Below are positions 9,054 to 51,129 of a DNA stretch of 64,000 nucleotides, piece after piece (position 1 is the stretch's first letter; the number at the start of each line of letters is the position of its first letter). The stretch is from Vicinamibacterales bacterium (GTDB taxonomy: Bacteria; Acidobacteriota; Vicinamibacteria; Vicinamibacterales; UBA8438). The notes under the pieces are model-generated. The model worked only from the letters and a program-made list of their open reading frames with translations, ran no database searches and was not told the origin of the DNA. Both the position numbers and the translations under genes were made by a program. The stretch is taken from positions 436,781-500,780 of the forward strand of contig OZ241843.1 in assembly GCA_965202695.1 (NCBI GenBank), in the 5' to 3' direction.

Positions 9054-9389
9054 TGGCGCACGGCTCGCCTCGCTGTCGCGAGGCGGACAACCGCCGTGAA
9101 GCGGCGTCGGCGGACCGAGCGGGCGCCGGGGGCGCTGTGGACCTGCCCGGCCTGTGGACGCCCGCGGGGCGTCGTACTGCATCCGCAGATCGGCGCGGCG
9201 GGCGCCCACAGGCCGTTGGAAATCTCGCGGGCGATCGCTGCCGCCGGTGCCTGCACCGAGGCCGCGAGATTCCCACAGGTCCACAGCGCTTGTTCCTCGT
9301 TGATGACTCACACGCAAACCCGTCCATCCGGGGGACCGTCATGATGGGAACCCAAGCGTTAACCTGTCCACGGAATCGGGGCAACCTCA

Positions 9390-12300
9390 GACCCGTCACT
9401 ATCGGCGGCCCCAGGACGCCGTCCACCTTGTGGTTCGCGCTGTTCGAGATCGCATTCGCGCCCAGCCCCAGGCTCGCCGCCGCCGTGGAGTCGCGCGCGT
9501 CGTCGATCTCCCCGCCGTTCAGGGTCAGCGCGCCCGCCCCCACGCTGATCCCGTCCGTGTCCGCGTCCGCCGCGACCACCGTGTAGCGGAAAACCAGCGA
9601 CGCCGTCCCCGTCCCCGAAACGTACGACGCCTGCCGCGTCTGCGTGCCGATGGTCAAGGCCAGCCGCGGCGAACCCGTCACCGTCACCGGCCGCACGAAC
9701 GTCACCTGCGCCTCGATCCGCTCGTCCAGCCCGTAGGTGTCACCGCTGGCCGGGGTGCTCGTGATCGACACGCCGCTCACCGACGGCGCCGTGAACGTCG
9801 CACCCGCCACCTTGTGGCCCGCGCTGTTCGAGACGGCGTGGGCGCCCAGCCCCAGCACCGCGTCGGTCGTGCCGCCGGATACGTCGATCGTCCCGCCGTT
9901 CAGCGTCAGCGCGCCCGCCGCGATGCTGATCCCGTCCGCGTCCGCGTCCCCCGCCACCACCGTGTAGCGGAAAACCAGCGACGCCGTCCCCGTGCCCGAG
10001 GCGTACGACGCCTGCCGCGTCGCCGTCCCGACCCCCAGCGCCAGCCGCGGCGTCCCCGTGACGTCCACCGCCTTGTTGAACGTCACCGTCACTTCGATCC
10101 GCTCGCCCCGCTCGAACGTGCCGTCCGCCGCCGGCGAGTTCAGCGCCACGCCCTGCACCCCCGGCGGCCCCTGGGTGCTGTCCACCTTGTGGAGCGCGCT
10201 GTTGGAGATCGCGTTCGCGCCCAACCCCAGGCTTGCGGCCGCCATGGCGTCGCGCGCGTCGTCGATCCTCCCGCCGTTCAGGGTCAGCGCGTCCGCCGCG
10301 ACGCTGATCCCGTCCGCGTCCGCGTCGCCCGCGACCACCGTGTAGCTGAACGTCAGCGCCGTCGCCATCCTCGCGCCCGATACCCAGGCCGCCTGCCGGG
10401 TCGCCGTGCCGATGGTCAGCGCCAGTTGCGGCGAACCCGTCACCGCCACCCGCCGCGCGAACGTCACCCGCACCGTGATCTCGTCGCCCAGCCTGTACGT
10501 GCCGCCGACCGGGAAGTCCGTGATCGACACCTGGCTCACCGCCGCCGCCGTGAACGTCCCGCCCGCCACCTTGTGGCCCGTGCTGTTCGAGACGGCGTTC
10601 GGCCCCAGCCCCAGCGCCGCGTCCAGGGTCGCGCCCGCCGCCCGGATCGTCCCGCCGTTCAAGGTCAGCGCGCCCGCCGCGATGCTGATCCCGTCCGCGT
10701 CCGCGTCCGACGAGGCCACCGTGTAGCGGAACACCAGCGACGCCGTTCCCGTGCCCGAGACGTAGGACGCCTGCCGCGTCTGCGTCCCGACCCCCAGCGC
10801 CAGCCGCGGCGTCCCCGTCACGTCCACCGCGCTCCTGAACGTCAACGTGACTTCGATCCGCTCGCCGCGCTCGAACGTGTCGCCCGCCGCCGGCGAACCG
10901 ATCGTCAGACCCGTCACGTCCGGCGGCCCCCGGCTGCCGTCCACCTTGTGGCTCGAGTCGTTCGCAATCGTGTGCGTGCCCAGCCCCAGCAGGGCGTTCG
11001 TTCCCGCCGCGCTCCGGATCGTCCCGCCGGCCAGCGACAGGGCGCCCGCCCCCACGCCGATCCCGTCGACGTCCAGGTCGCCCACGGCCACCGTATAGCT
11101 GAACGTCAGGGCCGTCGTGCCGCTGCCGCCCGCGTACGCCGCGGACCGCGACCCCGTCCCGACCGCCAGGCTGACCCTCGGCGCGCCCGTCACCCTCACC
11201 GGGATGCGGAACCCCACCTGCACGTCGATCGTCTCTCCCCGCCCGTACGTGTCCCCGATCGCCGGACTGCTCGCAATCGAAACCAAGTTCACCGCCGGCG
11301 CCGGCGCCGTGCTTCCGTCCACCTTGTGGGCCGCGGCGGCCGCAATCGCGTTCACGCCCAGGCCCAGCGCCGCCGCCGTCCGGTTCCCGTTCAGGATCGT
11401 CCCCCCGTTCAGGCCCAGAGCGCCCGCCGAGACGCCGATCCCGTCACTGTCCCTGTCCGCCGCCTGCACCGTGTAGTGGAACGTCAGGGCCGTCGTGCCG
11501 CTGCCGCTCGCATACGCCGCCTGGGCCGTGGCGGCCCCGATCGTCAGCGCCAGTCGCGGCGTCCCCGTCACCGTCACCGCGGTCGAGAACCCCACCGCCA
11601 CCGCGATCCGCTCGCCCGCCCCGTAGGTGTCGCCGCTCACCGGACTGCTCGTGAGCGAAACCTGGCTCACGGCCGCCCGCGCCCCGTCCACCTTGTGGCC
11701 GCCGGCCGTCGGGAACCCGCCGACGCTCAGATTGGCGTTCACGCCGTTCCCGCTCCGCATCGTCCCGCCGTTGAGCGACAGGGCGCTCGTCCCCACGCTG
11801 ATCCCGGCGACGTCCAGATCCGTCGCCTGCACGGTGTAGCGGAACGTCAGGGCCGTCGTGCCGCTGCCGCTCGCATACGCCGCCTGGGCCGTGGCGGCCC
11901 CGATCGTCAGCGCCAGTTGCGGCGTCCCCGTCACCGTCACCGGGATCTGGAACCTCACCTCCACCGCGATCGTCTCTCCCGCGCCGTAGACGTCGCCGCT
12001 CGCCGGAGAACTCGAGACCCTGACTCCGTCCGACGGGGACCGCGGCGCCGTGGCGGGGCCGTTCACCTTGTGGTCCGCCTGGTTCGTCAGGGCGTGCGTG
12101 CCCAGCCCCAGCGCCGCGTTCGTCATCGCGGCGCTCCGGATGGTCCCGCCACCGAGGGCCAGCGCGCTCGCCCCGATCGCGATCCCGTCCGCGTCCGCAT
12201 CCGTCGCCAGCACCGTGTAACGGAACGTCAGCGTCCGCGTCCCGCTCCCGCCCGCGTAACCCGCCTGCCCCGTGCCGGTTCCGATGGTCAGCGCCAGCCG

Positions 12301-18789: not shown

Positions 18790-20985
18790 TCAGTTCGAGG
18801 TGACGAGCGCGCGGTAGGCGCCGTCCTGCCCGATGAGCTCGTCGTGGGTGCCGCTCTGGACGATGCGGCCTCTGTCGAGCACCACTATCTCGTCCGCGTC
18901 CCGGATCGTGCTCAGCCGGTGCGCGACGATCAGGCAGGTGCATCCGCGCCGCCGGATGCGGTCGTCGAACTCCATCTCGGTGATCGGGTCGAGCGCGGCG
19001 GTCGCCTCGTCGAGAATCAGCACCGTCGGATTGGACGCGAGCGCGCGGGCGACTTCCAGACGCTGGCGCTGGCCGCCGCTGAAGTTGCGCCCGCCTTCCT
19101 CGACCGGCGAGTCGTACTTGCCGGGCCGGCGCGCGATCTCGTCGTGGATCACCGCGCCGCGCAGGGCGTTGGTGACGTCGCTTTCCGGAATGGTCGGATT
19201 CCAGAGGGTGACGTTCTCGCGCACGTTGCCGTCGAACAGCATGACGTCCTGGTCGACGTAGGAGAGCGTACCGGTCAGGTGGCTCGGGGGAATTTCGGTC
19301 ACCGGCCGGCCGTCCATCCGCACCGTCCCGGACCACGGCGTCAGCAGGCCGCAGACCAGCTTGGCGATCGTCGACTTGCCGCATCCGGACGAGCCGACGA
19401 GCGCCACGCGCTGCCCCGGCCGGATCGACAGGCTGAAGTCCTGGATGAACGGCGGCTCCTGCTCGTTGTACCCGAACGTGAGGTTCTCGACGTCGACGAA
19501 TCCCCGCGTCGGCGCGGGCGCGTCCGGCGCCGACCGGTCCAGGGCCTGCGCCGCGCGCGCGTCCGGCTGGTAGTGCAGCACGTCGTCGAGGCGGGCGATG
19601 TCGCCCTTCACGGTCTGCAGCTCGGCGGCGAACTTCACCAGTCCGTCGACCGGCTGGAGGAAGCTCCGGGCGAGGTTCTGGAAGGCGATCAGGCCGCCGA
19701 CGGTGATCGCGCCGGCGTTCATCCGCAGGCCGCCCGCGCCCAGGATGGAGACGGTCGTGACGGACGAGAGCAACGGCGGGAGGACGTTCAGCAGGTTGGT
19801 GAGGACGCCGATCTGCTGTTGCGCGGCGAGCGCGTTGGCCTGCAGGCCGGACCAGCGCGTGAAGAATTCGTCTTCGGAGCCGTTCGCTTTCAGCGTCTCG
19901 ATCATCCGGATCCCGTTCACCGAGGCGCCGGCCAGGCTCCCCTCCTCCTTGAGCATCCGGCGGCTGCCGTCTTCGCGCGCGCGCGACACCAGGCGGAGCG
20001 CCATCAGGTTGACGGCGGCCATCGCGACGACGACCAGCGCCAGCGCCGGGTCGTAGGAGACCATGACGAAGCCGTAGATCGCCATGGTGATCAGGCCGAC
20101 GAAACTGGTGGCCAGCTGCCCCGACAGGAGCTCGGCGACCCGGTCGTTGGAAGCCACCCGGTGGGCGATCTCGCCGGCGAACCGCTGGCCGAAGAAGTGC
20201 ATCGGCAGGGTCACGACGTGGCGGAAGAAGCGGTAGGTGGCGACCAGCGAGAGCTTGATCTCCAGGCGGGCGAGACAGTGCTGCTGCAGCCACGTCAGGC
20301 CGCCCTGCATGGCGGCGGCCGCCGCCAGGCCGAGCAGCATCGGCATGACCAGGTCTTCGCTGCGCGGGATCAGCACGTCGTCCACGAACACCTTGGACAG
20401 CGTGGCGACGGCGAGGCCGGGCACGACCAGCACCAGGGTCGCGAGGACGACGAAGCCGAGCGGCGACCACGCCTCCCCCAGCCGGGCGAGCAGGCCGCGG
20501 GACACGCTGGGGGCCGAGCCGGCCCGGCGGAAATCCGGACCGGGAACGAACGCCAGGCAGACGCCGGTGAAGCCCTCGTCGAACTCCTGCCACGACAACC
20601 GGCGCGGCCCTTCGGCCGGATCGTTGACGTAGACGGTCCCGCGCCGGATACCTTCGACCACGATGAAATGGTTGAAGTCCCAGAAGACGATCAGCGGGAA
20701 GGGCAGGTCGAACAGCCGCCCCGGTTCGCGCCGGAAGCCCTGCGCGACGAGGCCGTACTCCCGCGCCGCCCGCAGCATGTTGACCGCCTTGCTGCCGTCG
20801 CGCGAGACGCCGCAACGCACCCGCAGCTCTTCCAGCGGCGCCCAGCGCCCGAAGTATGCGAGGATCATCCCGAGGCACGCGGCGCCGCACTCGGTCATCT
20901 CCATCTGCAGGATGGTGGGCACGGTCCGGCGGCCGCCGCGCTTGCGGGTGACGTTGCCCCGGAAGGCGGAAACGTCGCCGCTCAC
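18790..20985 (-). CDS. NHLP bacteriocin-export ABC transporter with C39 peptidase domain
   Basis: PTILQMEMTECGAACL, CGVSRDGSKA, WDFNHFIVV, NDPAEG (Cys/His/Asp present); GSSGCGKST, FSGGQRQRLE; GTG start inferred. Confidence 0.92.
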   Translation of the reverse strand: MSGDVSAFRGNVTRKRGGRRTVPTILQMEMTECGAACLGMILAYFGRWAPLEELRVRCGVSRDGSKAVNMLRAAREYGLVAQGFRREPGRLFDLPFPLIVFWDFNHFIVVEGIRRGTVYVNDPAEGPRRLSWQEFDEGFTGVCLAFVPGPDFRRAGSAPSVSRGLLARLGEAWSPLGFVVLATLVLVVPGLAVATLSKVFVDDVLIPRSEDLVMPMLLGLAAAAAMQGGLTWLQQHCLARLEIKLSLVATYRFFRHVVTLPMHFFGQRFAGEIAHRVASNDRVAELLSGQLATSFVGLITMAIYGFVMVSYDPALALVVVAMAAVNLMALRLVSRAREDGSRRMLKEEGSLAGASVNGIRMIETLKANGSEDEFFTRWSGLQANALAAQQQIGVLTNLLNVLPPLLSSVTTVSILGAGGLRMNAGAITVGGLIAFQNLARSFLQPVDGLVKFAAELQTVKGDIARLDDVLHYQPDARAAQALDRSAPDAPAPTRGFVDVENLTFGYNEQEPPFIQDFSLSIRPGQRVALVGSSGCGKSTIAKLVCGLLTPWSGTVRMDGRPVTEIPPSHLTGTLSYVDQDVMLFDGNVRENVTLWNPTIPESDVTNALRGAVIHDEIARRPGKYDSPVEEGGRNFSGGQRQRLEVARALASNPTVLILDEATAALDPITEMEFDDRIRRRGCTCLIVAHRLSTIRDADEIVVLDRGRIVQSGTHDELIGQDGAYRALVTSN

Positions 20986-31741: not shown

Positions 31742-33250
31742 TCATCGCTTCGCGCGGGCCTCTGCGCCGGGGGCGCCGGGCCGGCCGCCCAGGATCGCGA
31801 GGTCCCGGGCGTCGGGAGCGCGGGGCCGGCCGCCCAGGATCACGTCGCCGACCGAACCTTCCACCGTCGGGTCGAGGCCGGTGGCGCGGGCGAACAGGAC
31901 CGCGTCGCCGCTGCCCAGCCCGCAGGGCGAGAGTCCGAGCTCGGTCGCCGCCAGGTACAGGGTCTGGTACAGCACCCCGGTGTTGCGGAGGGTCGTGGCG
32001 TAGCAGATCGATTTGTACTTCCAGGTCACCCGGGCGAAACGCGCGGCGATGACGAGCACGATCTGCGGATCGGCCTGGTTGGCGCTGGCCACGTGCGCAT
32101 CCGCGAAGAACCGCTCGACGTCCCGCGTGCGGCCCGCGATCCGCACCAGCGCGTGCCCGGCCGCGTCGTAGTGGTACAGGCCCGGCTCCAGGCCGTCGCA
32201 GCGGTCGACGACCGGATAGATCTCCAGCTCGTAGCTCGCCCCGCCGTTCGGATAGGGGCGGCGCGTGAGCTCGAACGGGGCGGTCCGGCCGGCGGCGTTG
32301 CCCACCTCGACGACCACGGAGGAGCGGATGCGGGCCGCGCGGTCGAGCAGCGCCCCGAGATCGTCCCGCGATATCGGGTGCGCCTCGTCGTAGTACCGCT
32401 CGGACCGGCGCCGTTCGAGCACGGCCGCGAACGATTCCCCGCCGGCGGGGGCGCGGGCGAGGGGGATCGGCGTCCCGGGCCACGGCGGGCGCGCCGCCGG
32501 CAGCGGCTCGATCTCGCCGATGAACGAGAACCCGGCGCCGAGCGGGTCGCGGTGCCAGCCGCCGCGGCTGTGGGCGTGGAACAGCAGATCGTGGAACTCC
32601 CATTGCGCCAGCGCGTCGCGCCGCGCGGCGTCCGGCCCCGGTTCCGCCGCCGTCCCGTCGGATTTGCCGGTGGCGGGCGGCGGCGCGGACCGCGCGCCGG
32701 CGGGCGGTTGCCGCGTTTCCAGAAACCCCGCGGCGGCGAGCGCGCGGCGGACGATCGGAGCGTCGAGCGCCGCGAGGCGGTCGAACCGGAAGCGCGCCCC
32801 CGCCAGCGGCGACTCGAGGAGCCACGCGCCGCCGTCGCGCCGGATGCAGGCGAAGCGGTCGAGCGGCGCATCGGGTGCGGCCGGGGCCAGCGCGGGCGTG
32901 AACGACGGCCGTTGCGGCACGATGACCGCGGGTTCGTCCGCCGCGTCGACCAGCGGGAATTCGACGAATCCCGCCCCGCACAGCCGCTGCAGCCAGACGA
33001 GGTAGAAGGCGGCGCGCGCGCCGCCGCCGGCGGCGATGACCGTGTCGCGCAACGCGGCGAGCGGCGCGCCGGCGGCGAGCCGGGCGTTGGCCGCCTCGAA
33101 ATCCGGCGCATGCGGACCGAGGACCGCCGGCGCCGGCAGGTCCGGACCCTCGGCGACGAACGAGGCGCCGTCGGCGGACCGCCCGAGGGTCCATCCGGAA
33201 CGGAGGCGCACGCGGATCGCCGGCTCCCGCACGAGGTCGAGGAAAGTCAT
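31742..33250 (-). CDS. SagB/ThcOx-family FMN-dependent azoline dehydrogenase
   Basis: QWEFHDLLFHAHSRGG, LERRRSER, RPYPNGGASYELEIY, GLYHYD, RFARVTWKY (Lys-Tyr), GVLYQTLYLAAT, CGLGSG. Confidence 0.92.
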   Translation of the reverse strand: MTFLDLVREPAIRVRLRSGWTLGRSADGASFVAEGPDLPAPAVLGPHAPDFEAANARLAAGAPLAALRDTVIAAGGGARAAFYLVWLQRLCGAGFVEFPLVDAADEPAVIVPQRPSFTPALAPAAPDAPLDRFACIRRDGGAWLLESPLAGARFRFDRLAALDAPIVRRALAAAGFLETRQPPAGARSAPPPATGKSDGTAAEPGPDAARRDALAQWEFHDLLFHAHSRGGWHRDPLGAGFSFIGEIEPLPAARPPWPGTPIPLARAPAGGESFAAVLERRRSERYYDEAHPISRDDLGALLDRAARIRSSVVVEVGNAAGRTAPFELTRRPYPNGGASYELEIYPVVDRCDGLEPGLYHYDAAGHALVRIAGRTRDVERFFADAHVASANQADPQIVLVIAARFARVTWKYKSICYATTLRNTGVLYQTLYLAATELGLSPCGLGSGDAVLFARATGLDPTVEGSVGDVILGGRPRAPDARDLAILGGRPGAPGAEARAKR

Positions 33251-33258
33251 GCCGTCCG

Positions 33259-35607
33259 TCAGATGAAGACCGACACCGGGTTGAGGTCGGCCTCCGCGGT
33301 GGGGGTCTCGCGCCATCCCATCCGGACCGGCACGTCGTACAGCCGCCCCGGCCCGAAGCGCGGCCAGAAGTGCCGCAGTCCCGGCACCAGGGTCCTGGTC
33401 ACCGGCAAGCCGACGTCCGGCCGGGTCTGGTCGAGCACGAGGAACTCCAGCCCCAGGCCCTCGACCCGCGCGCGGCACAGCTCCACGTCGTCCCGCAGGT
33501 CCGTCGTCGCCGGAACCGGGTAGTCCGCGGCGCCGCGCCGCGCCGCGCCGCCGGCCGGCGCCAGCCAGCGGTGGTCGGCGAGCCGGGCGGTCCGCCACCA
33601 CCGGAGACTCTCCGGGTCGTCGAAGAGGTACCCGCGGCCGTCGCCGTCCACGTCCCGGACCGCCGGCAGCGACTGGTTCAACTCGGTCACCGCCCGCAGC
33701 GCCGCGATGCGCGGGTCCAGGTGGGCGCCGGCCGAGAACAGGATGTCCTCGGCCTCCTTGTCGGTGCGCCGCGAGACGGAGACGAAGACCGGGATGCCGA
33801 GGTCGCTGGTGACGTCCAGCACCCACAGTTCGCGGTGGACCGCGGCGTAGTAGTCGCGCGCGCCGGCCAGCCAGGCGTCGCCGAAGCTGTCCAGGTCCAC
33901 CTCGGGGAGCGCGATCCGGTTGTACCACCAGCAGGCGAACGCGTCGCGCTCGACCAGCTCGAAGAACCCCTGCAGAATCGCTTCCTCGCGCGTGTTGCCG
34001 GCCGCGCAGCCGTTCGAGTCGGGGCCGCAGGAGGCCTTCCCTTTCTCGATCGGCGGGCCGTAGTAGAGCATCTGGGTGGGCAGGTACCGGCGGCGGTCGG
34101 CGGTGAGCGACCAGACCGGCGTCCAGTCCATCTCCGCCGCCGGGTCGAAGCGCACCGGCACGCGGTTGAAGCGCTCCTTGCGCGCGTTGATCTCCCGCGC
34201 GCGGTCGTACTGCGCTTCGCTGTAGCGCATGACGTCGTTGGGGTGTATCGCCTCCCCGTCCGCGAAGTCCTCGAAGCGCGCGCGGCGGCGGATCTCGTCA
34301 CCGTGGTAGACGCCGGAGTAGCGTTCGATCGCCTCGCAGAGCGCGCTCGCCTCCGCCTGCTCCGGCGTGGCGCCCTTGCCCGAGCTCTTGCTCCGCAGGC
34401 TGTTGCGCAACAGGAACAGCGAATCGGTCCGCAAGCCCAGATTGCTCCCCGCCCACCAGACGTGCAGCCAGGAATCGGCCGCGTCGGTGATGCGCTGCAG
34501 CCCCGTCACCACCCCGCTGACCGGGCTGACCAGATGCCGGTACCGGCGCACCGTCTCGGCCGGCGGCACCGACCGCTGCCCGCCGCTGCCGAAGACCGGC
34601 TTGGGGCTCGGCCCGAGCCGGACCGGGGCGTCCGGCCGGTCGGGGCGGTGGAGCGCGGGGTCGCCGCAGACCCGGCACTGCGGCCGGCGCATGACCGGGT
34701 GGCGGTCGACGCCCGGCCCGTGGCAGTCGACCGCAATCGCATGGCGGTGCAGCGGGGCCTGCTCGCCGAGAACCACCCAGCGGACGATTTCGGCTGCCGC
34801 CAGGCCCACCGCCGCGTTCGAGAAGGGCGGCAGGACGGCGCGCGGCCGGATCGCGGCGGCGTCGTCGCCGGCGGCGGCGCGCAGGAAGGTCTCGACCTCG
34901 TCGTTGGCGCGCAGGCGGTGCGCCAGGCATTCCCAGCAGGGCGCGCCGTCTTCCCCCGGCCGGAAGACCGGCCCGAAGAGCGGCCGGACGCCGTGCGGCT
35001 GGACCAGCACCCACGGGACGCCGGAGGCGCGGTGGCGCCGGTTGGCGGCGGCGTGCTCCGGGTCCAGATAATGGGAAGTGGCGGCCACCGCGAGGGTCGG
35101 CTCGCCGGCCGTGACGGTCAGCCGCGCCGCCTCGAGCGCCGCGCCGAGGCGGCCGTCGCCGTCCCCGGCCACCGCGACCCGGGCCGCGCCCAGCCGTTCT
35201 TCCGCCGCGCGGGGCGAGACCCCCGCCGCGCTCCAGAACGCGGCGGCGGCGCGCGGCATGGCGAACTCGGCCGAGACGACGTGGCCTTTCGAGGCGAGGG
35301 AGACGAGCGCGGTCTGCACCTCGATCCGCCCGTGGCGATCGGCCAGCGCGGCGGCGATCTCGTGGCGCGAGCGGGCGCCGTCGACGAGCGGCAGCAGGTC
35401 GACGTACCGCCGCCCGTACAGTATCGTGCTGCCGATCTCGGAAACCAGCAGCACGGCATCGTCGCCGACCGGACGCGCCTCCAGATGCGGGGCCAGCAAC
35501 GGCGTCTCGACGAGACCGCGGTCGGCGGCGGTGGTGTGAGTCAACGCCCGGGCCGGAACGTCCGCGGGGTCGGCCGCGGCCGGTTTGCCGGTGTCGAACC
35601 GTTCCAC
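33259..35607 (-). CDS. Fused RRE/E1-YcaO cyclodehydratase (TruD/PatD-like)
   Basis: PLFGPVF, CWECLAHRL, RRPQCRVCG; HLVSPVSGVV, SSGKG, EAIERYS, SNGCAAG, ELVERDA, RAVTELNQ, PGLRHFWPRFGPGRLYDVP. Confidence 0.93.
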   Translation of the reverse strand: MERFDTGKPAAADPADVPARALTHTTAADRGLVETPLLAPHLEARPVGDDAVLLVSEIGSTILYGRRYVDLLPLVDGARSRHEIAAALADRHGRIEVQTALVSLASKGHVVSAEFAMPRAAAAFWSAAGVSPRAAEERLGAARVAVAGDGDGRLGAALEAARLTVTAGEPTLAVAATSHYLDPEHAAANRRHRASGVPWVLVQPHGVRPLFGPVFRPGEDGAPCWECLAHRLRANDEVETFLRAAAGDDAAAIRPRAVLPPFSNAAVGLAAAEIVRWVVLGEQAPLHRHAIAVDCHGPGVDRHPVMRRPQCRVCGDPALHRPDRPDAPVRLGPSPKPVFGSGGQRSVPPAETVRRYRHLVSPVSGVVTGLQRITDAADSWLHVWWAGSNLGLRTDSLFLLRNSLRSKSSGKGATPEQAEASALCEAIERYSGVYHGDEIRRRARFEDFADGEAIHPNDVMRYSEAQYDRAREINARKERFNRVPVRFDPAAEMDWTPVWSLTADRRRYLPTQMLYYGPPIEKGKASCGPDSNGCAAGNTREEAILQGFFELVERDAFACWWYNRIALPEVDLDSFGDAWLAGARDYYAAVHRELWVLDVTSDLGIPVFVSVSRRTDKEAEDILFSAGAHLDPRIAALRAVTELNQSLPAVRDVDGDGRGYLFDDPESLRWWRTARLADHRWLAPAGGAARRGAADYPVPATTDLRDDVELCRARVEGLGLEFLVLDQTRPDVGLPVTRTLVPGLRHFWPRFGPGRLYDVPVRMGWRETPTAEADLNPVSVFI

Positions 35608-35701: not shown

Positions 35702-36025
35702 TCAACTCATGGTCGAAATGGTGCTGATCAGGCAGAACGAGCACTTGGGGCCGAAGCTGATGCCGCCGGCGACCGTTGCGAGGTCCTCGTCCGCCAGGAC
35801 CTCGTTCGGGTCGGGAGGCATGATGAAGTTGAAGGTTTCCGCCGTGTTCGCGACGATCCGCACGTCGCGATCCGAAGGCATGCAGATGCCGTGCTCGGAC
35901 AGCACGGTGCGGGCGTCCTTCTCCGCCCGTGCGCGCAGTTCCGGATCTTCCTGGCACTTCCGGGTGAAGTCGACGAACGGCGCCATCTCGGCGGACTTCG
36001 CAAGGGTGTCGAGGTTGTTCATCAT
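35702..36025 (-). CDS. NHLP-leader RiPP precursor P1 (core ISFGPKCSFCLISTISTMS)
   Basis: NHLP-like leader ending LADEDLATVAGG; Cys/Ser/Thr-rich core. Confidence 0.9.
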   Translation of the reverse strand: MMNNLDTLAKSAEMAPFVDFTRKCQEDPELRARAEKDARTVLSEHGICMPSDRDVRIVANTAETFNFIMPPDPNEVLADEDLATVAGGISFGPKCSFCLISTISTMS

Positions 36026-36115
36026 TGCCGGTTTCCTGGGAGCATGGGGGGGTGCGGCCACGGCCGCGGGCGGCGGTCACGCGAAGGACGCGCGCCGCCC
36101 CCCGGCCGGACGGCG

Positions 36116-36442
36116 TCAACTGAAGGTCGAAATGGTGCTGATCAGGCAGAACGAGGTCTTGGCCTGGGTGCTGCTGATGCCGCCGGCGACCGTTGCGAGG
36201 TCCTCGTCCGCCAGGACCTCGTTCGGGTCGGGAGGCATGATGAAGTTGAAGGTTTCCGCCGTCTGCGCAACGATCCGCACGTCGCGATCCGGCGGCATGC
36301 AGATGCCGTGCTCGGCCAGCACGGCGCGGGGGTCCGCCTCTGCCCGTGCGCGCAGTTCCGGATCTTCCTGATACTTCCGGGTGAAGTCGACGAACGGCTC
36401 AATTTCGCCGGACTCCGCGAGGGTGTCGAGGTTGTTCATCAT
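36116..36442 (-). CDS. NHLP-leader RiPP precursor P2 (core ISSTQAKTSFCLISTISTFS)
   Basis: AGGAGG RBS; leader ending DLATVAGG; close paralog of P1. Confidence 0.9.
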   Translation of the reverse strand: MMNNLDTLAESGEIEPFVDFTRKYQEDPELRARAEADPRAVLAEHGICMPPDRDVRIVAQTAETFNFIMPPDPNEVLADEDLATVAGGISSTQAKTSFCLISTISTFS

Positions 36443-36524
36443 TGCCGGCCTCCTGGGAACATAGATGATACGGCCACGGCCGCGGTCACGCGAAGGACGC
36501 GCGCCACCCTCCGACCGGTTGGCG

Positions 36525-36848
36525 TCAACTATAGCACAGGACGCAACTGATCAGGGTGGACGCGGTCTTGTTGGCTCTGCTGTCGGTGGAGAAGCCGCCG
36601 GCGACCGCGCCGAGGTCCTCTTCCGCCAGGGCGACGTTCGGGTCGGGAGGCATGACGACGTGGAAGGTCTCCGCCGTGTTCGCGACGACCCGCACGTCAC
36701 GCCCGGGCGGCATGCGGATGCCGTGCTCGGACAGCACGGCGCGGGGTTCCGCCTCCGCCCGTGCGCGCAGTCCCGGACTTTCCTGGTACTTCCGGGTGAA
36801 ATCGACGAACTGCGACAAATCGCCGACGGTGTCGATGGTGTCCATCAT
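36525..36848 (-). CDS. NHLP-leader RiPP precursor P3 (core FSTDSRANKTASTLISCVLCYS)
   Basis: AAGGAGG RBS; leader ending DLGAVAGG. Confidence 0.9.
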   Translation of the reverse strand: MMDTIDTVGDLSQFVDFTRKYQESPGLRARAEAEPRAVLSEHGIRMPPGRDVRVVANTAETFHVVMPPDPNVALAEEDLGAVAGGFSTDSRANKTASTLISCVLCYS

Positions 36849-36941
36849 TGCCGGCCTCCTTTGGCGACGGGTGCGCAGCATATCACGACCGCGGAAGCCC
36901 ACGCAACCGGCGCTGGGACGCGGGCATTCCGCCAGGGGCGG

Positions 36942-38393
36942 TCATGCCGTTTCTTCCGCGTCGGCGAAGGCGCAGACCGGCTCGATCAGCACGCCCCGGC
37001 GCCAGAGCGCGGTCACGTCCCTGCGCAGGAAGCGGGACTCGATCGCCGGCCGGCGGGCGAAGTCCCGCACCACGTCGTCCACCCGCGCCCCGCCGCGGAA
37101 GGCGCCGGCGAGGGCCGGCAGGTGGCCCAGGTCGCGGCCCGACCGGAACGTCACCCCGTACCCGTGCCCGTGCCCGGACGCGCGGATCCGGCCGGGACTC
37201 TCCCGGAGCGGCGCCACCGCCACTCCGCGCTGGAGCGCGAGCCGCGCCGGCGGGTCCGGCGTCATGTGGCGGGAGACCAGGCGGTCGATCGCGCGCGCGA
37301 AGTCCCCGCCGCTCCCGAAGCGTTCCTCACCGAAGACGACGTAGCCGTCCGGCCAGCGGTCGGAACAGGGTTCGGGCGAGATCAGGCGCACCCGGCCCAC
37401 GACCGGCTCGATCAGGAACCCGGACACCGAGGCCACCGTCCGGTGCGCGAAATTCTCGGGGTCGAGCCCCGACAGGCGCAGCTTGTTCCGCTCGTGCGCC
37501 GCCAGCTCCGGCCGCCGCCGGGCCGCCGTGCGGGCATGCCCGACCTCCGCCAGCGCCAGGATCGATTCGCGGTTCGCCGGGGCGACCTCCACGTCGGCGA
37601 GCTCCCCGGCGGAGAACTCCGCGTGGATCTGCTCCAGCCGCCGCCGGGTGACCACCGAGAAGCGCACCACGGAGTACGGGTATTCGCGGGGCCGCGCCGC
37701 CGCCAGCAGGCGCCGGGTGCGGGCGGGGTCGGCGACCGCCGCCGCCGTCGTCGTGCTCGGATACCGTCCCAGGAGCCGCCGGAAGACCTCCGCGTACGCC
37801 TCGTAGTCCGGATGGTCCAGCGGATCGGTGGCCCAGTACAGAATGCCCCGCACCGCGCTCGCGCCGAACGGCTCCCGGAGCGTGTCCAGCATCCGTTCCC
37901 AAGCCGCCAGATCCGTCGGCAGCACCCCGCTCAGCGGCTGCGCGGAGACGCCGCAGAACCAGCAGCGGTGGGAACAGCCCCGGGTCAGCTCGACGGCGAA
38001 CGGCAGGTGCGGGTTCACCGCGGCGCCGTCCGCGCCCTGCGCGAAGGCGAACCGCGTGCGCTGCCGCGCCCGCCACGACCGGTAGGACTCGCAGGCCCCG
38101 CCGTCGTCGGCGAAGAAGTCCGCGTAGGCCTGCACGCGCTGGTTGAGGAGACCCCAGGCGCGGGCCTCCGGGGTCCGTTCGTCGCACCGCGCGCCCGCGC
38201 GCCACACGAAGGCGAGGGCCTCGGGGTCGAGGTCGAGGCCCAGGGCGCCGACGGCCGCGCCGGGGTCCTCGCGCAAGGAGGCGCGGAAGCGGTCGTCCCC
38301 CGTCCAGCGTTCGCGGAAACGCTTCACCTGCGCGAGGATCCGCCCGCCGCCGTCCGGCATCCCGCTGCTCACGATCCGGGGTCCCGATTCCAT
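36942..38393 (-). CDS. PoyD/OspD-like radical SAM peptide epimerase homolog 1 (TVAS variant)
   Basis: KRFRERW, PFAVELTRGCSHRCWFCGVSA, YWATDPLDHPDYE, TVASVSGFL, ISPEPCSDRWPDGY. Confidence 0.85.
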   Translation of the reverse strand: MESGPRIVSSGMPDGGGRILAQVKRFRERWTGDDRFRASLREDPGAAVGALGLDLDPEALAFVWRAGARCDERTPEARAWGLLNQRVQAYADFFADDGGACESYRSWRARQRTRFAFAQGADGAAVNPHLPFAVELTRGCSHRCWFCGVSAQPLSGVLPTDLAAWERMLDTLREPFGASAVRGILYWATDPLDHPDYEAYAEVFRRLLGRYPSTTTAAAVADPARTRRLLAAARPREYPYSVVRFSVVTRRRLEQIHAEFSAGELADVEVAPANRESILALAEVGHARTAARRRPELAAHERNKLRLSGLDPENFAHRTVASVSGFLIEPVVGRVRLISPEPCSDRWPDGYVVFGEERFGSGGDFARAIDRLVSRHMTPDPPARLALQRGVAVAPLRESPGRIRASGHGHGYGVTFRSGRDLGHLPALAGAFRGGARVDDVVRDFARRPAIESRFLRRDVTALWRRGVLIEPVCAFADAEETA

Positions 38394-38464
38394 CGCCCTC
38401 GCGGACGAGAAGCGGCCGGGCGGCGGTCACGCGAAGGGCGCGCGCCGCCCCCGGCCGAAGGGCA

Positions 38465-38785
38465 TCAACTGAAGCTCATGATGCAACTGATGATGCACGA
38501 CGCGGTCTTGGGGCCGGTGCTGCCGCCGGAGACCGCCACGAGGTCCTCGTCCGCCAGAACCGCGTTCGGGTCGGGAGGCATGACGAAGTTGTAGGTCTCC
38601 GCCGTGTTCGCAGCGATCCGCACGTCCTGACCCGGCGGCACCTGGATGCCGTGCTCGGACAGCACGGCGCGGGGTTCCACGTCCGCCCGTGCGCGCAGAT
38701 CCGGGCTTCCCTGGTACTTCCGGGTGAAGTCGACGAAATGCTGCAGTTCGCCGGACGCTACGTGGGCCTCGAGGGTGTTCAGCAT
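38465..38785 (-). CDS. NHLP-leader RiPP precursor P4 (core STGPKTASCIISCIMSFS)
   Basis: AAGGAGG RBS; leader ending DLVAVSGG. Confidence 0.9.
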   Translation of the reverse strand: MLNTLEAHVASGELQHFVDFTRKYQGSPDLRARADVEPRAVLSEHGIQVPPGQDVRIAANTAETYNFVMPPDPNAVLADEDLVAVSGGSTGPKTASCIISCIMSFS

Positions 38786-38885
38786 GTTGGCCTCCTTTAC
38801 TGGTGACGGGCAATAAGCATATCACGACCACGGAGTCCCAGGCAACCCCATCGGACATGGAGACACGGAAATTCCACACGGGCCG

Positions 38886-39099
38886 TCATGCCGTCTCTTC
38901 CGCGTCGGCGTCGGCGCAGGCGCCGACCGGTTCGATCAGCACGCCCTGCCGCCACGGACAGGCCGCGTCCGGGTACCTCCCGGATACGACGGGCCGGCAG
39001 CGGCGGCGGTCGGCGGCGGTGCGCGTCAAACGCCCGCGTCAAACGCCCGCGTCAAACGCCCGCGGGGCTTGCCGCCTTGCCGGTGTCGAACCGTTCCAC
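38886..39099 (-). pseudogene. Fossil fusion of a YcaO 5' end and a radical SAM 3' end
   Basis: Starts VERFDTGK like the gene at 35607; ends WRQGVLIEPVGACADADAEETA* like the rSAM genes; early stop; 13-bp tandem x3. Confidence 0.75.
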
Positions 39100-46993: not shown

Positions 46994-48244
46994 ATGGCCA
47001 ATACACCGTTCCGGCAATCGGCCCTGGACCGGCTCTCCACCCCGGAGCATCTCGATCGCGCGCTGTTCGTGACGGCTCCCCGCGACTGGCTGGCGTTCGG
47101 GACGCTGACGGCGATCGCCGCCGCGGTGGTCGTCTGGGCCTTCGTGGGCGAAGTGGCGACCTACGTGCATGCGAACGGGATTCTGCTGAGCCAGGGCGGC
47201 ACGGTCGTCGACGCGGTGGCGGGCGGGCCGGGCACGGTGGCCCGGATCGTGCCCGCCGTGGGCGACGAGGTCGAAGAGGGGGCGGTCGTCGCGCAAATCG
47301 CCAACCTGGAAGTCGCCGAGCGCCATGCCGGCGCGCTGGCGCTGGTGGAGGAGCGCCGGGCGGGGCTCGCCGACACCCGCGCGGCGGTGGCCGAGGAGAA
47401 CGCGCTCATCGAGGGCAACCTCGCCCGGCAGCGCGAGCGCCTCGCCGACCTGGAGCGCAGCAGCCGCGAGGCGGTCGAGACCGCCCGGCAGCGCCTGGAG
47501 AACCACCGGCAGCTCTTCGCCGACCGCGTCGTCACGCGCGTGACCGTGGAGCGCAGCCAGGCGGCCTTCGATCAGGCCCAGCGCGACCTGTTCGGCGTGC
47601 TGAGCGAGCGCGACAACCTGGAATCGACCGAGCTCCAGCGCCGCAACCGGAACAACACCCGCATCGGCGAAGCGGAGGCCCGCCTGCTCGCGGCCGAACG
47701 CCAGGTCAACGAGCTCGGGGTGCTGCTCGACACCCGGCAGGTGACGGCCCCGGTCTCCGGCCGCGTCACCGAGATCAAGACGCAGCTCGGCGCCGTGATC
47801 CAGGCGGGGCAGCCGGCGCTCAGCATCCAGTCGGGGGCGGAGAACCTCGGCGTGCTCATCTACGTGCCGCCGGCCGACGGCCGCAAGGTCGAAACGGGCA
47901 TGGAAGTGCTCGTCTCCCCGTCCACGGTGCGGGCCGAGGAGTACGGCTACGTGCGGGGCCGGGTCGAGAACATCTCCGAGTTCCCGGCCAGCGTCGAAGG
48001 CATGGTCGCGGTGCTGCAGAACCGCGCCCTCGCGCAGACGTTCTCGGAGAGCGGGCCCCCCTATGCCGGCCGGGTGCTGCTCGTGCCCGATCCGGCGACC
48101 GCCAGCGGCTTTGCCTGGACTTCGCCCAAAGCCTCGGGCGAGGTGCTCACGGACGGCACGCTGGCGCGCATCGAGGTCAAGATTCAGAGCCAGACGCCGA
48201 TCACCCTGGTGGCGCCGCTGTTGCGGGAGACGTTCGGGCTGTAA
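46994..48244 (+). CDS. NHLP bacteriocin-system secretion protein (HlyD family)
   Basis: FRQSALDRLSTPEHLD, one TM segment, coiled coil, VSPSTVRAEEYGY, SGFAWTS, PITLVAP. Confidence 0.92.
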   Translation: MANTPFRQSALDRLSTPEHLDRALFVTAPRDWLAFGTLTAIAAAVVVWAFVGEVATYVHANGILLSQGGTVVDAVAGGPGTVARIVPAVGDEVEEGAVVAQIANLEVAERHAGALALVEERRAGLADTRAAVAEENALIEGNLARQRERLADLERSSREAVETARQRLENHRQLFADRVVTRVTVERSQAAFDQAQRDLFGVLSERDNLESTELQRRNRNNTRIGEAEARLLAAERQVNELGVLLDTRQVTAPVSGRVTEIKTQLGAVIQAGQPALSIQSGAENLGVLIYVPPADGRKVETGMEVLVSPSTVRAEEYGYVRGRVENISEFPASVEGMVAVLQNRALAQTFSESGPPYAGRVLLVPDPATASGFAWTSPKASGEVLTDGTLARIEVKIQSQTPITLVAPLLRETFGL

Positions 48245-48471: not shown

Positions 48472-48732
48472 TCAGTCCCCGGACTTGACCGCCGGCAGCA
48501 CGATGTGCAGCAGATTTTCGGTGTTGAACAGCAGCTTGACGGAGGCGCCCGCCGGGACGTCGATCCCCTCGGCCTTGAGCACCGCGGTCGGGTCCGCGTC
48601 CACCGCCGCCTTGAAATCGGGGTCGCCGTAGTACTTGGCCACCACGTCGGCGTACACCCGCTGGTTGCGTTCGAGGCGATCGCGGGTCAGCCCCTCCAGT
48701 ACTTCGTCCGTCGCGTTCGTCTTGTCTGTCAT
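48472..48732 (-). CDS. Core-less NHLP-leader-like protein
   Basis: VVAKYYGDPDFKAAVDADPTAVLKAEGIDVPAGASVKLLFNTENLLHIVLP, then stop; no GG motif or core. Confidence 0.75.
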   Translation of the reverse strand: MTDKTNATDEVLEGLTRDRLERNQRVYADVVAKYYGDPDFKAAVDADPTAVLKAEGIDVPAGASVKLLFNTENLLHIVLPAVKSGD

Positions 48733-48939: not shown

Positions 48940-50355
48940 CTACTTGCCGCCGCCGCGCGAGAGAAAGCCGTGCGAAAGGCGCCAGCGGGCGTCGAGAGCC
49001 TCCTGGTCGAGATCCGGCAGGCCCGCGATTCCCAGCGCGCGCGCGGTCAGCCCCCCGACCGCCTCCAGCAGGCGGTAGGCGCCGACGACGGCGTCGCGCT
49101 CCGCGCCGAGCGCGGCGACCTGACGCGAGACGAGGTTCCGTTCGGCGTCGAGCACCTCCCGCGTCGTCCGTTCGCCGATGTCGGCCTCGCGCTGGATGCC
49201 GGTCAGCGCCGTACGCGATGCGTCGACCGCGGTCCGGAGCGCGGCGAGCCGCTCCCGGGCCGAGTGCAGGGCGAGCCAGGCGGCGGTCGCCCGTTGCGCC
49301 GCCTCCCGCGCGGCGGCCTCCTGCTCGCTGCGGGCCCGCTCCTGCACGCGGTGCGCCTGCCGGAGGCGCGCGCCCACGGCCCCGGCCTGATAGATCGGCA
49401 TGGTCACCTGGACGCCCAGGGTCATGTCGGTGCTGTTCGGCAGGAAGGAGAGCTGCCCCTGGCCCAGGGTCCTCGTGATCGTCCCCCGCAGATCGACCCG
49501 CGGTCCGAGCTCGCCGGTGACCGCGCGCGCGGCGTGGCCGGCGGCGCGCACGGCGTGGTCGGCGGCGCGCACGGCCGGCCGGCCGCCCTCGGCCATGCGA
49601 ATCGCCTCCGCCAGGCTGCCCGGCAGGCCGGCCGGCTCGTCCGGCGCCACCAGACCGTGCGGGCGGACCCCGACCAGCATCGCGAACAGGGACCGCTGCG
49701 TTTCGAGATCCGCCTCCGCCGCCGCCACCTCGGCGATCGCCACGTCCCGTTCCGCAAGGGCCTGGGCGACGTCGGCGGCGGTACGGTCGCCGACCTCGAA
49801 CTGGGCCTCGTTCTCGCGGACGCGCGCCTCGAACGCACCGAGCGCCGCCCGGCGCAGCTCGGCCGTGCGTTCGGCGCGCAGCACGTCGAGGTAGACGGTG
49901 GCGACGCGCAGAAGCACGACCTGCTCCACGTCCTCGACGGCGGCGTGGGCCTGCAGGACCTCCTGGTCGGCGCGGCGGAGCAGCGCGCCGTTGCGGCCGC
50001 TGTGATAGAGGTTCTGCGTCGCCGACAGCGTGAGGATCCGCTGGCTGGTCACCAGAGGGGACGCGCTGAAGTCGGTGAAGTCGAGGGCGCTCCCGATGCG
50101 GGTGAGGCTCGCCCGCGTGTCGGCCTGCACGGCGGGCATCCAGACCGCGCGGGCGAGAGGGACGCCCTCGTGGGCGGAACGCGCGGCCTCGCGGGCCGCG
50201 CCCACGTTCGGATTGGTCCGGAGCGCCTCCGCGAAAGCCTCCGCGAGCGTCAGCGCGCGAAGCGGCGCCGCCGCCAGCGACAGCAGCGCCAGCCCGGCCG
50301 CCGCCCGCCGCCACCCCTTCCTCCGCCGCCCGATTCCGCCTGTCCTGTCGTCCAT
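48940..50355 (-). CDS. TolC-family type I secretion outer-membrane protein
   Basis: Signal peptide; LTLAEAFAEALRTNP, QFEVGDRTAADVAQA, PIYQAG, GERTTREVLDAE, YRLLEAVGGL. Confidence 0.9.
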   Translation of the reverse strand: MDDRTGGIGRRRKGWRRAAAGLALLSLAAAPLRALTLAEAFAEALRTNPNVGAAREAARSAHEGVPLARAVWMPAVQADTRASLTRIGSALDFTDFSASPLVTSQRILTLSATQNLYHSGRNGALLRRADQEVLQAHAAVEDVEQVVLLRVATVYLDVLRAERTAELRRAALGAFEARVRENEAQFEVGDRTAADVAQALAERDVAIAEVAAAEADLETQRSLFAMLVGVRPHGLVAPDEPAGLPGSLAEAIRMAEGGRPAVRAADHAVRAAGHAARAVTGELGPRVDLRGTITRTLGQGQLSFLPNSTDMTLGVQVTMPIYQAGAVGARLRQAHRVQERARSEQEAAAREAAQRATAAWLALHSARERLAALRTAVDASRTALTGIQREADIGERTTREVLDAERNLVSRQVAALGAERDAVVGAYRLLEAVGGLTARALGIAGLPDLDQEALDARWRLSHGFLSRGGGK

Positions 50356-50577
50356 GATTCGGGTTCCCTCGTGACCGCAAGCAGCGGATGCCGTCCGGAA
50401 GGCGCCGCCGGAGCTCTCTGTCTTTCGGCCGTTCGACCCCGGACGTTGAGACGGCGCGGCGCATTCGGCGGCCGGATGCGCCGTTTCGGGACGCCGGTCG
50501 AGCACGGGTGAGACGCGCCGACGGCGCGGGGTGCGCGGTCGGGAACGACGCCGACGAACGGCCGGACGGCTCCGGGG

Positions 50578-51129
50578 CTAGCGCCGCCGGACGGACTGGA
50601 TCACCACCACCTCGTCCGGCAGGCTGTTGGTCACCGGCACGGCGGCGATGCGGTCCACGACGTCGGCGCCGTCGATGACCCGTCCGAACACCGCGTACCC
50701 GAAGTCGCGCACGCCGTGGTTGAGGAAGTTGTTGTCGACGGTATTGATGAAGAACTGATCGGTCGCGCTGTGGATCTCGCTGGTCCGCGCCATGGCGATC
50801 GTGTATCGGTCGTTCAGCAGCCCGTTCTCCGCCTCGTTCTCGATCGGGTCGCGGGTCGGCCTGGTGCGCATCTCCGTCGAGTAGGCGCCGCCCTGGATCA
50901 TGAACCCCTGGATGACGCGGTGGAAGATGGTGCCGTCGTAGTGCCCGGCGTCCACGTACTGCAGGAAGTTGTCGACGCTGATGGGCGCCTCGGCGGGCGC
51001 GAGCTCGATGGTGATGACGCCCAGGCTGGTCTCCATCACCACGACGGGGTCGTCCTGCGCGGACGCGGGGAGGGGACCGGACAGCGCGAACGCGATGCCG
51101 GCGGCGACGGCGAAGCGGCGGAACGTCAT
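50578..51129 (-). CDS. ppiA: Periplasmic cyclophilin peptidyl-prolyl isomerase
   Basis: YDGTIFHRVIQGFMIQGG, IAMART, SATDQFFIN, GYAVFGRV; signal peptide. Confidence 0.88.
   Translation of the reverse strand: MTFRRFAVAAGIAFALSGPLPASAQDDPVVVMETSLGVITIELAPAEAPISVDNFLQYVDAGHYDGTIFHRVIQGFMIQGGAYSTEMRTRPTRDPIENEAENGLLNDRYTIAMARTSEIHSATDQFFINTVDNNFLNHGVRDFGYAVFGRVIDGADVVDRIAAVPVTNSLPDEVVVIQSVRRR

Follow-up and report, generated by a model that had tools for sequence, protein, structure and literature searches.

A naturally occurring serine at the donor-cysteine position of a PoyD-family radical SAM protein in a Vicinamibacterales proteusin gene cluster

Radical S-adenosylmethionine (SAM) peptide epimerases are mechanistically defined by one cysteine, which returns a hydrogen atom to the opposite face of a Cα radical. 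To our knowledge, loss of this donor thiol has until now been studied in engineered mutants only. Here we describe rSAM1, a PoyD-family radical SAM protein with a serine at the donor position, encoded in a stretch of 64,000 nucleotides from a Vicinamibacterales bacterium (Acidobacteriota; assembly GCA_965202695.1, contig OZ241843.1, positions 436,781 to 500,780; hereafter the window, in which all coordinates are given unless another contig is named). For PoyD, a review describes Cys372 as the single strictly conserved cysteine among about 70 homologs and as the proposed donor, and reports that a C372A variant gave no epimerisation in vivo and one event in vitro (PMC8326336). OspD is described as quenching the Cα radical via a conserved cysteine thiol, and the proteusin epimerases as lacking an auxiliary cluster of the EpeE type (PMC13012085, 2026). 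Both sources agree with the initial annotation of the window, which had taken quenching by an enzyme cysteine as established for PoyD-type epimerases. In EpeE (YydG), which unlike rSAM1 contains a twitch domain with an auxiliary [4Fe-4S] cluster, mutation of Cys223 is reported to result in peptide breakage (PMC8326336), and the C223S variant to accumulate the Cα radical and epimerise slowly (PMC13012085). EpeE C223S and PoyD C372A are the same kind of donor-site change as the one in rSAM1, but they were engineered, whereas that of rSAM1 is natural and conserved in a clade. A word search of the literature, with subscription papers and supplements outside its scope, found no description of a natural Ser form.

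Related gene clusters have been described for carnazolamide ('dehydrazole'), with the PoyD-like enzyme CcaD, and for nostatin A, with NstF. Compared by their published descriptions, both hold the same set of genes as the window, for an NHLP precursor, a YcaO protein, a dehydrogenase, a DUF4135/LanM-like protein and a PoyD-like radical SAM protein (PMC10676384, PMC11583998). Each of them has a single PoyD-like enzyme and one D-Pro, which in the carnazolamide cluster is credited to CcaD (PMC10676384), whereas the window has two paralogs and eight precursors. Nostatin A, whose azole/dehydro proteusin cluster is related and also encodes a PoyD-like enzyme, contains a Cα–S (sactionine-type) bridge; the enzyme that makes it is not demonstrated in that description (PMC11583998). 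By its gene content the locus in the window, with NHLP precursors, YcaO, azoline dehydrogenase, DUF4135 and radical SAM proteins all present, is a dehydrazole-like (carnazolamide-like) proteusin cluster.

The gene for rSAM1 (36942..38393, minus strand) is an intact open reading frame (ORF) of 483 codons. It encodes the radical SAM [4Fe-4S] motif CSHRCWFC (residues 140-147, with C140, C144 and C147; 37953..37976, minus strand) and has the codon TCG for Ser322 (37428..37430, minus strand) at the donor-Cys column of the PoyD family. Its Cys-type paralog rSAM2 (41801..43231, minus strand; 476 residues) has Cys317, codon TGC (42281..42283, minus strand), in the same column; the motif thus reads TVASVSGFL in rSAM1 and TIACVSGFL in rSAM2. 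Re-reading of the letters bore out what the initial annotation had said of the two genes: both motifs and codons, the two-base change from TGC to TCG, the intact ORF and CxxxCxxC motif of rSAM1, and the retention in both copies of another cysteine in ISPEPC (C343 in rSAM1, C338 in rSAM2). Over 470 aligned residues rSAM1 and rSAM2 share 71% identity; the radical SAM core is the most similar part (77%), ahead of the C-terminal domain (68%) and the N-terminal region (55%). Besides the three cluster cysteines, rSAM1 has only four others (residues 70, 101, 343 and 474). Both the window and the related locus L002 have TCG as the Ser codon, but the L001 ortholog has TCC, so the path from TGC to TCG comprises one replacement and one silent change. 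The stretch 37335-37636 is covered by contigs from four public runs belonging to four studies, with no alternative letter listed at 37428-37430, which argues that the Ser codon is not an assembly slip.

Both proteins match TIGR04517 rSAM_PoyD (NCBIfam, 'radical SAM family RiPP maturation amino acid epimerase'), rSAM1 with an E value of 1.1e-86 and 291.5 bits and rSAM2 with 6.2e-90 and 302.3 bits; homology is clear, though both scores lie below the curated cut-off of 325 bits, the threshold for naming. Like PoyD and OspD, rSAM1 has an NHLP-like N-terminal region (a weak match to NF038399 lies close to the N-terminus of rSAM1 and rSAM2), a CxxxCxxC core, a C-terminal RRE fold and no auxiliary-cluster domain, and NHLP precursors are encoded nearby. 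It differs from them in having Ser for the donor Cys, a sub-cut-off score, a cluster of the azole/dehydro-residue type and short precursor cores. Because Ser322 occupies the donor-Cys column, we class rSAM1, on profile and alignment, as a PoyD-family homolog and not as a canonical epimerase.

AlphaFold2 models built from 83-84 homologs reached predicted local distance difference test (pLDDT) values of 92.7 for rSAM1 and 93.5 for rSAM2. Their secondary-structure elements follow one order, from a helical N-terminal part through the radical SAM core to a beta/helix domain at the C-terminus, and Ser322 of rSAM1 is placed at the same point ahead of a strand as Cys317 of rSAM2. Residues 373-467 of the rSAM2 model match RRE/PqqD-like peptide-recognition domains (Z 6-9.6), and the rSAM1 model has the same elements. 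The best match of the rSAM2 core in VIA-align was EpeE (8ai1_A; Z 10.3, root-mean-square deviation 6.2, 8% identity across 240 aligned residues), although BtrN, SuiB, SkfB and others scored within 1 Z of it; SkfB (Z 9.6) and CteB (Z 7.8) were also among the fold matches. Searches of PDB chains returned no sequence match to rSAM2 (E up to 1) and, with the family profile, none to the radical SAM core; the profile gave weak winged-helix and nitrile-hydratase pieces only. By Cys pattern, no auxiliary [4Fe-4S] SPASM/twitch domain or Cys-rich C-terminus was found in rSAM1. Sactipeptide thioether synthases of the SkfB, CteB and AlbA type also start from a peptide Cα radical, but they have SPASM/twitch auxiliary clusters and rSAM1 does not. 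An identity of rSAM1 as an EpeE/YydG-type enzyme or a sactisynthase was rejected because it lacks the auxiliary-cluster domain; EpeE is a match at the level of the fold only.

The column occupied by Ser322 is nearly invariant in the family, which makes a chance difference very improbable. Among 216 aligned homologs it holds Cys in 207 and Ser in nine, the three CxxxCxxC columns are conserved in 215, and the runner-up Cys column outside that motif reaches 147/216. A smaller set of 97 sequences gave 90 Cys and seven Ser at this column, and the only other conserved cysteines were the three of CxxxCxxC. The best 150 of 946 representatives at 50% identity had Cys in 148 cases, Ser in one (from the Vicinamibacterales Ser clade) and Ile in one, and in 80 metagenome loci Cys was found in 93 of 94 copies and Ser in the other; a further 107 homologs had Cys in every one of the 106 that cover the donor site. 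P0309 (487 residues), a single representative with GTISIITGFL and an intact CxxxCxxC, is the sole family member seen with a replacement other than Ser. As the TIAC Cys is the only near-invariant cysteine outside CxxxCxxC in every survey, it is by elimination the H-atom donor of the family, an identification that is strongly supported but indirect. It agrees with the review's single strictly conserved Cys372 of PoyD (PMC8326336). The initial annotation had supposed that the motif Cys is the donor. This holds by elimination; no PoyD- or OspD-named protein was among the homolog-search hits.

The same annotation had proposed a search for a conserved Ser clade, and such a clade exists. A 70-row tree was built from rSAM1, rSAM2, four proteins derived from loci, P0001-P0059 and five outgroup sequences, with P0060 and the other distant hits excluded. 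In it the nine Ser rows were monophyletic, with 99 in the Shimodaira–Hasegawa-like approximate likelihood ratio test (SH-aLRT), and sister to four rSAM2-type Cys rows, with a joint support of 100. The stems of the Ser clade and its Cys sister clade measured 0.13 and 0.15. The six 90%-identity clusters that make up the clade comprise 66 members, and all of the 52 members read carry TVAS and an intact CxxxCxxC. We defined family-conserved columns as those at least 95% conserved among the 207 Cys-type proteins (46 columns); seven Ser-clade sequences fully keep 43 of them. The exceptions are C322S (7/7), G143R, which rSAM2 has as well, F326L (1/7), and a gap in one sequence that is truncated, which leaves C322S as the only universal clade-specific change among the 46. 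The adjacent Ile-to-Val replacement, from TIAC to TVAS, is the only other clade-diagnostic one. Identities in the clade span 74-97%. The ratio of nonsynonymous to synonymous substitution rates (dN/dS, Nei-Gojobori) was 0.48-0.86 over all pairs, Cys-type pairs included, and is uninformative because GC at third positions is about 95%. The conserved columns argue that the Ser form is not a decaying copy and that the gene is maintained, which disfavours the inactive rSAM1 that the initial annotation had left as an option. rSAM1 probably arose via duplication inside a dehydrazole-like proteusin cluster.

Ser forms also occur in homologs of cyanobacterial type. The P0190 cluster of homologs has four Ser and two Cys members and the P0202/Scytonema cluster two Ser members and one Cys member; Ser and Cys members differ at 11 of 500 positions (P0190/P0219) and at 14 of 358 (P0220/P0221), and the label Scytonema sp. 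NUACC26 stands on one Ser member and one Cys member. For the context of P0190, a metagenome scan gave only relatives of 68% identity or less. A third case is a metagenome contig of 41% GC (L018, 1-9472), on which one NHLP precursor gene is followed by three tandem PoyD-type paralogs (Cys, Cys, Ser) of 53-56% identity; the third copy reads TNISLTGFL and has an intact CSVGCWFC. A 662-residue protein is encoded downstream of the three paralogs. Since P0190, P0202 and the third L018 copy are only 48-58% identical to one another, the alignments indicate that Cys-to-Ser arose independently in three cyanobacterial-type lineages and, with the Vicinamibacterales clade, make four separate Ser lineages. 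As far as sequences can tell, Ser in place of the donor Cys is a genuine natural variation on an established enzyme family, conserved within a clade and seen repeatedly; the proteins of all four lineages are otherwise intact.

The genomic company of the Ser form was read in three genomes. In the window and in L002, whose Ser-type protein is a 96% ortholog of rSAM1, the Ser-type and rSAM2-type genes lie with one common set of YcaO, SagB and DUF4135 genes. A whole-genome search of G001, whose Ser-type protein is a 74% ortholog, found only two family members, one of Ser type and one distant Cys type, and no rSAM2-type sister gene. The Ser-type gene of G001 lies between orthologs of the DUF4135 gene (82%) and of the YcaO (84%) and SagB (75%) genes and has its own precursors, of the 'FISCIMSFS' type; the Cys-type protein (58-60% identity, TIAC) belongs to an adjoining second YcaO/SagB/DUF4135 set with a different type of precursor. 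The Ser type is thus kept in all three genomes and the Cys sister in two, and some Cys-type paralog is always found within about 12 kb. A sample of 201 genomes of the same order contained close relatives in G000 only, together with five distant homologs, three of which read as Cys; the motif pattern was unmatched in the other two. The closest genomes found carry labels of Vicinamibacterales metagenome-assembled genomes. Public runs containing 36000-39000 are mostly labelled as sponge or marine metagenomes (six studies), and no RNA run is listed among them. These labels and the absence of the rSAM genes from the three same-genus genomes sampled suggest that the cluster is an accessory trait, carried by a sponge-associated lineage.

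What, then, does rSAM1 do? We favour the reading that selection has retained rSAM1 as a working enzyme and that its product is not that of ordinary multi-site epimerisation, and put the probability of this at roughly 0.55. The functional reading draws on the conserved radical machinery, the predicted fold, the retention of the Ser clade and the recurrence of the Ser form, from which rSAM1 is most likely a functional radical enzyme unable to quench through the canonical thiol. It would bind the NHLP precursors of the cluster through its N-terminal NHLP-like domain and its C-terminal RRE domain, cleave SAM and abstract a Cα hydrogen from a core residue, and would be unable to return a hydrogen from the canonical thiol. 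The O–H bond of serine is too strong for H donation to a captodatively stabilised Cα radical, so the radical in rSAM1 would be resolved in some other way. By preference this would be capture by a core Cys to give a Cα–S bridge, our first guess because such a bridge is present in nostatin A, whose sister-type cluster also encodes a PoyD-like enzyme, then desaturation by loss of a second hydrogen (-2 Da), and then backbone scission; the minimum outcome would be slow single-site epimerisation with a non-canonical donor. Ordinary multi-site L-to-D epimerisation would be expected of rSAM2. A wider proposal is possible, although on balance we doubt it: donor-less PoyD-family enzymes could form a recurrent, unrecognised functional class, in which an isosteric Cys-to-Ser swap, kept beside a normal epimerase, diverts the Cα radical without an auxiliary cluster, the product here being a Cα–S bridge to a core Cys, an α,β-desaturation or a programmed backbone cut.

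Several points weigh against a new activity for rSAM1. The chemistry we propose for it is a conjecture from sequence, and the donor was mapped by elimination together with a review statement, with neither PoyD nor OspD in the alignments. A Ser form need not mean new chemistry, since slow epimerisation persists in EpeE C223S. rSAM1 is also without the auxiliary-cluster domain on which the known thioether-forming radical SAM enzymes rely. A nearby cysteine, a possible alternative donor, is present in 9/9 Ser-type sequences. The Ser and Cys forms of the cyanobacterial-type clusters differ by only 11-14 residues and could therefore be a tolerated polymorphism in the presence of a paralog. Multi-paralog loci are common (17/84 overall, and 10/30 among loci of at least 12 kb), so the co-occurrence of Ser and Cys forms is only suggestive. 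Finally, the dN/dS values of the Ser clade (0.54-0.71) fall in the same range as those of Cys-type pairs (0.48-0.72).

The alternative that fares best is that rSAM1 is an ordinary epimerase that takes its hydrogen from another thiol, most plausibly Cys343 of ISPEPC and otherwise a core-peptide Cys or a small-molecule thiol; we consider this rather unlikely. Cys343 (37365..37367, minus strand) is a semi-conserved second cysteine just past the pair of beta-strands that starts at residue 323. In the family this second Cys stands at ISP-C-PA (most members) or two residues on, at ISPEP-C, as in the rSAM1/rSAM2 lineage (37365-37373 in the window); the ISPEPC column itself holds Cys in 38, Ala in 31 and Ser in 27 of 97 sequences. 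In the AlphaFold2 models a strand (323-329 in rSAM1) starts right after the donor position; a short turn then leads to a second strand (334-340), which ends just ahead of ISPEPC. The DSSP strings would fit a hairpin made of these two strands, which would bring Cys343 next to residue 322. All nine Ser-type sequences have a Cys at 341 or 343, EpeE C223S is reported to make the D-product slowly (PMC13012085), and the Ser-type protein of G001 is the sole radical SAM protein of its own sub-cluster, all of which would suit a substitute donor. However, the second Cys is no compensating gain of the Ser forms, since rSAM2 and 176 of the 207 Cys-type proteins have it too. It is found in 185 of the 216 sequences, and because 31 members manage without it, it is not a general alternative donor, though it could act as a local substitute. 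PoyD C372A, moreover, is described as failing in vivo (PMC8326336), which would weigh against a substitute donor if PoyD has the second Cys. In the PoyD family, which has no auxiliary cluster, the second Cys could help to re-reduce the thiyl radical.

We think it improbable that rSAM1 is a tolerated hypomorph, that is, a redundant duplicate, or a non-catalytic partner that binds or chaperones the precursors for rSAM2. A Cys-type paralog does accompany the Ser form wherever the context could be read, by neighbourhood in the three genomes and L018 and by strain label in Scytonema; near-identical Ser and Cys forms coexist within the cyanobacterial clusters, and duplicated pieces of rSAM genes in the window (see below) point to ongoing gene turnover. 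Against a degenerating or purely binding protein, the three cluster cysteines and 43/46 conserved columns are kept over a clade of 74-97% identity, the stem of the clade shows no rate acceleration, G001 retains the Ser type where no rSAM2-type sister was found, and a pure binding role would make the radical SAM machinery needless. That the TIAC Cys is not the family's H-atom donor, and its replacement by Ser mechanistically meaningless, is very improbable: PoyD and OspD do lie outside the alignments and no homolog was seen with its donor Cys at exactly 372, the nearest being at 371, but no other Cys outside CxxxCxxC exceeds 68% in the 216 sequences, all 83 sequences of alignment A1, a subset of these, match TIGR04517, and the review gives exactly one strictly conserved Cys as the proposed donor (PMC8326336).

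With the rest of the protein intact, rSAM1 offers a natural test case for an epimerase-family enzyme without the donor Cys. If the Ser enzymes are active, they would show either how new products can be made from the Cα radical with no auxiliary cluster, or that another donor can support epimerisation; both outcomes would inform product control in the superfamily and the genome-based prediction of D-residues and crosslinks. Because rSAM1 and rSAM2 are 71% identical and have common precursors, the swap mutants S322C and C317S would be directly interpretable.

The proteusin cluster around the two genes spans about 31.7 to 50.5 kb of the window. On the minus strand it begins with a gene for a SagB-type azoline dehydrogenase (31742..33253; TIGR03605 152.7 bits, PF00881, PF22767) and one for a 782-residue fusion of a leader-binding domain and a YcaO cyclodehydratase (33259..35607; TIGR03604 270.5 bits, TIGR03882 137.8 bits, PF02624 E 1.7e-101). 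The SagB ORF as listed runs on to 33928 and overlaps the 3-prime end of the YcaO gene by about 670 nucleotides; when split by tblastn, it showed homology to SagB proteins only from about residue 226 of the listed ORF. The extension is a by-product of the 73% GC content, and there are many further long spurious ORFs on both strands. Directly upstream of rSAM2, also on the minus strand, a gene encodes an 861-residue DUF4135/LanM-like dehydratase (43235..45820; PF13575 E 9.5e-49; TIGR03897 198 bits, below the cut-off of 304). In carnazolamide-type clusters DUF4135 is joined to a zinc-independent cyclase domain of class III type (LanMbC); in the protein of the window the DUF4135 domain covers residues 185-543, and the C-terminal third (321 residues, 43235-44200) gave a weak LanM match only (46.9 bits). 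Export functions are represented by an NHLP bacteriocin system secretion protein of HlyD type (46994..48244, plus strand; TIGR03794 240 bits, above the cut-off of 156.2) and a TolC-family outer-membrane channel (48940..50505, minus strand; TIGR01844 230.7 bits, above the cut-off of 225.15).

The eight NHLP precursors have short cores of 18-25 residues that are rich in Ser, Thr and Cys. Seven are encoded on the minus strand: A1 (35702..36025, core ISFGPKCSFCLISTISTMS), A2 (36116..36442, core ISSTQAKTSFCLISTISTFS; TIGR03793 E 6.2e-11) and A3 (36525..36848, core FSTDSRANKTASTLISCVLCYS), followed beyond rSAM1 by A4 (38465..38785, core STGPKTASCIISCIMSFS), A5 (39212..39535, core FVSGNTGANNKTASTLISCVFCYS) and A6 (40283..40606, core FASGANGKTASTMISCVFCYS) and, beyond the DUF4135 gene, by A7 (45949..46290, core SSTAQRTVQSFKSASTILSCFACAS; TIGR03793 E 1.8e-12). 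The eighth, A8 (46581..46904, core TRPFSKCASTLVSCALCFS), is on the plus strand.

Pieces of rSAM and precursor genes are scattered between the intact ones. Two short ORFs on the minus strand (38886-39029 and 39977-40114), each close to the downstream end of a precursor gene, terminate in '...WRQGVLIEPVGACADA(D)AEETA' and are copies of the rSAM C-terminus; in L002, residues 289-412 of rSAM2 recur in inverted orientation at 9073-9444 (95% identity). Such pieces look like relics left by repeated segmental duplication of units made up of an rSAM 3-prime end plus a precursor gene. At 39590-39671 (minus strand) a precursor-like leader start, '...ELQHFVDFTRNYQESSDLRARADV', gives way to unrelated sequence, apparently the remnant of a further precursor gene; in L001, frameshifts disrupt the precursor copies at 19164-19498 and 20509-20703.

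A small protein of about 75-86 residues resembles an NHLP leader and has no core ('...YADVVAKYYGDPDFKA...LLHIVLP'). In the window it is encoded at 48472-48732 (minus strand; TIGR03793 E 9e-10, below the cut-off), and elsewhere at 15961-16155 in L001, 18040-18249 in L002, 3357-3506 and 5419-5637 in L004, and 18711-18890 in L006. It thus stands beside five of the seven related clusters read, the window included, and might serve as a free-standing accessory protein of leader type. A gene for a cyclophilin-type peptidyl-prolyl isomerase (50578-51129, minus strand) directly adjoins the TolC gene, at the cluster's edge.

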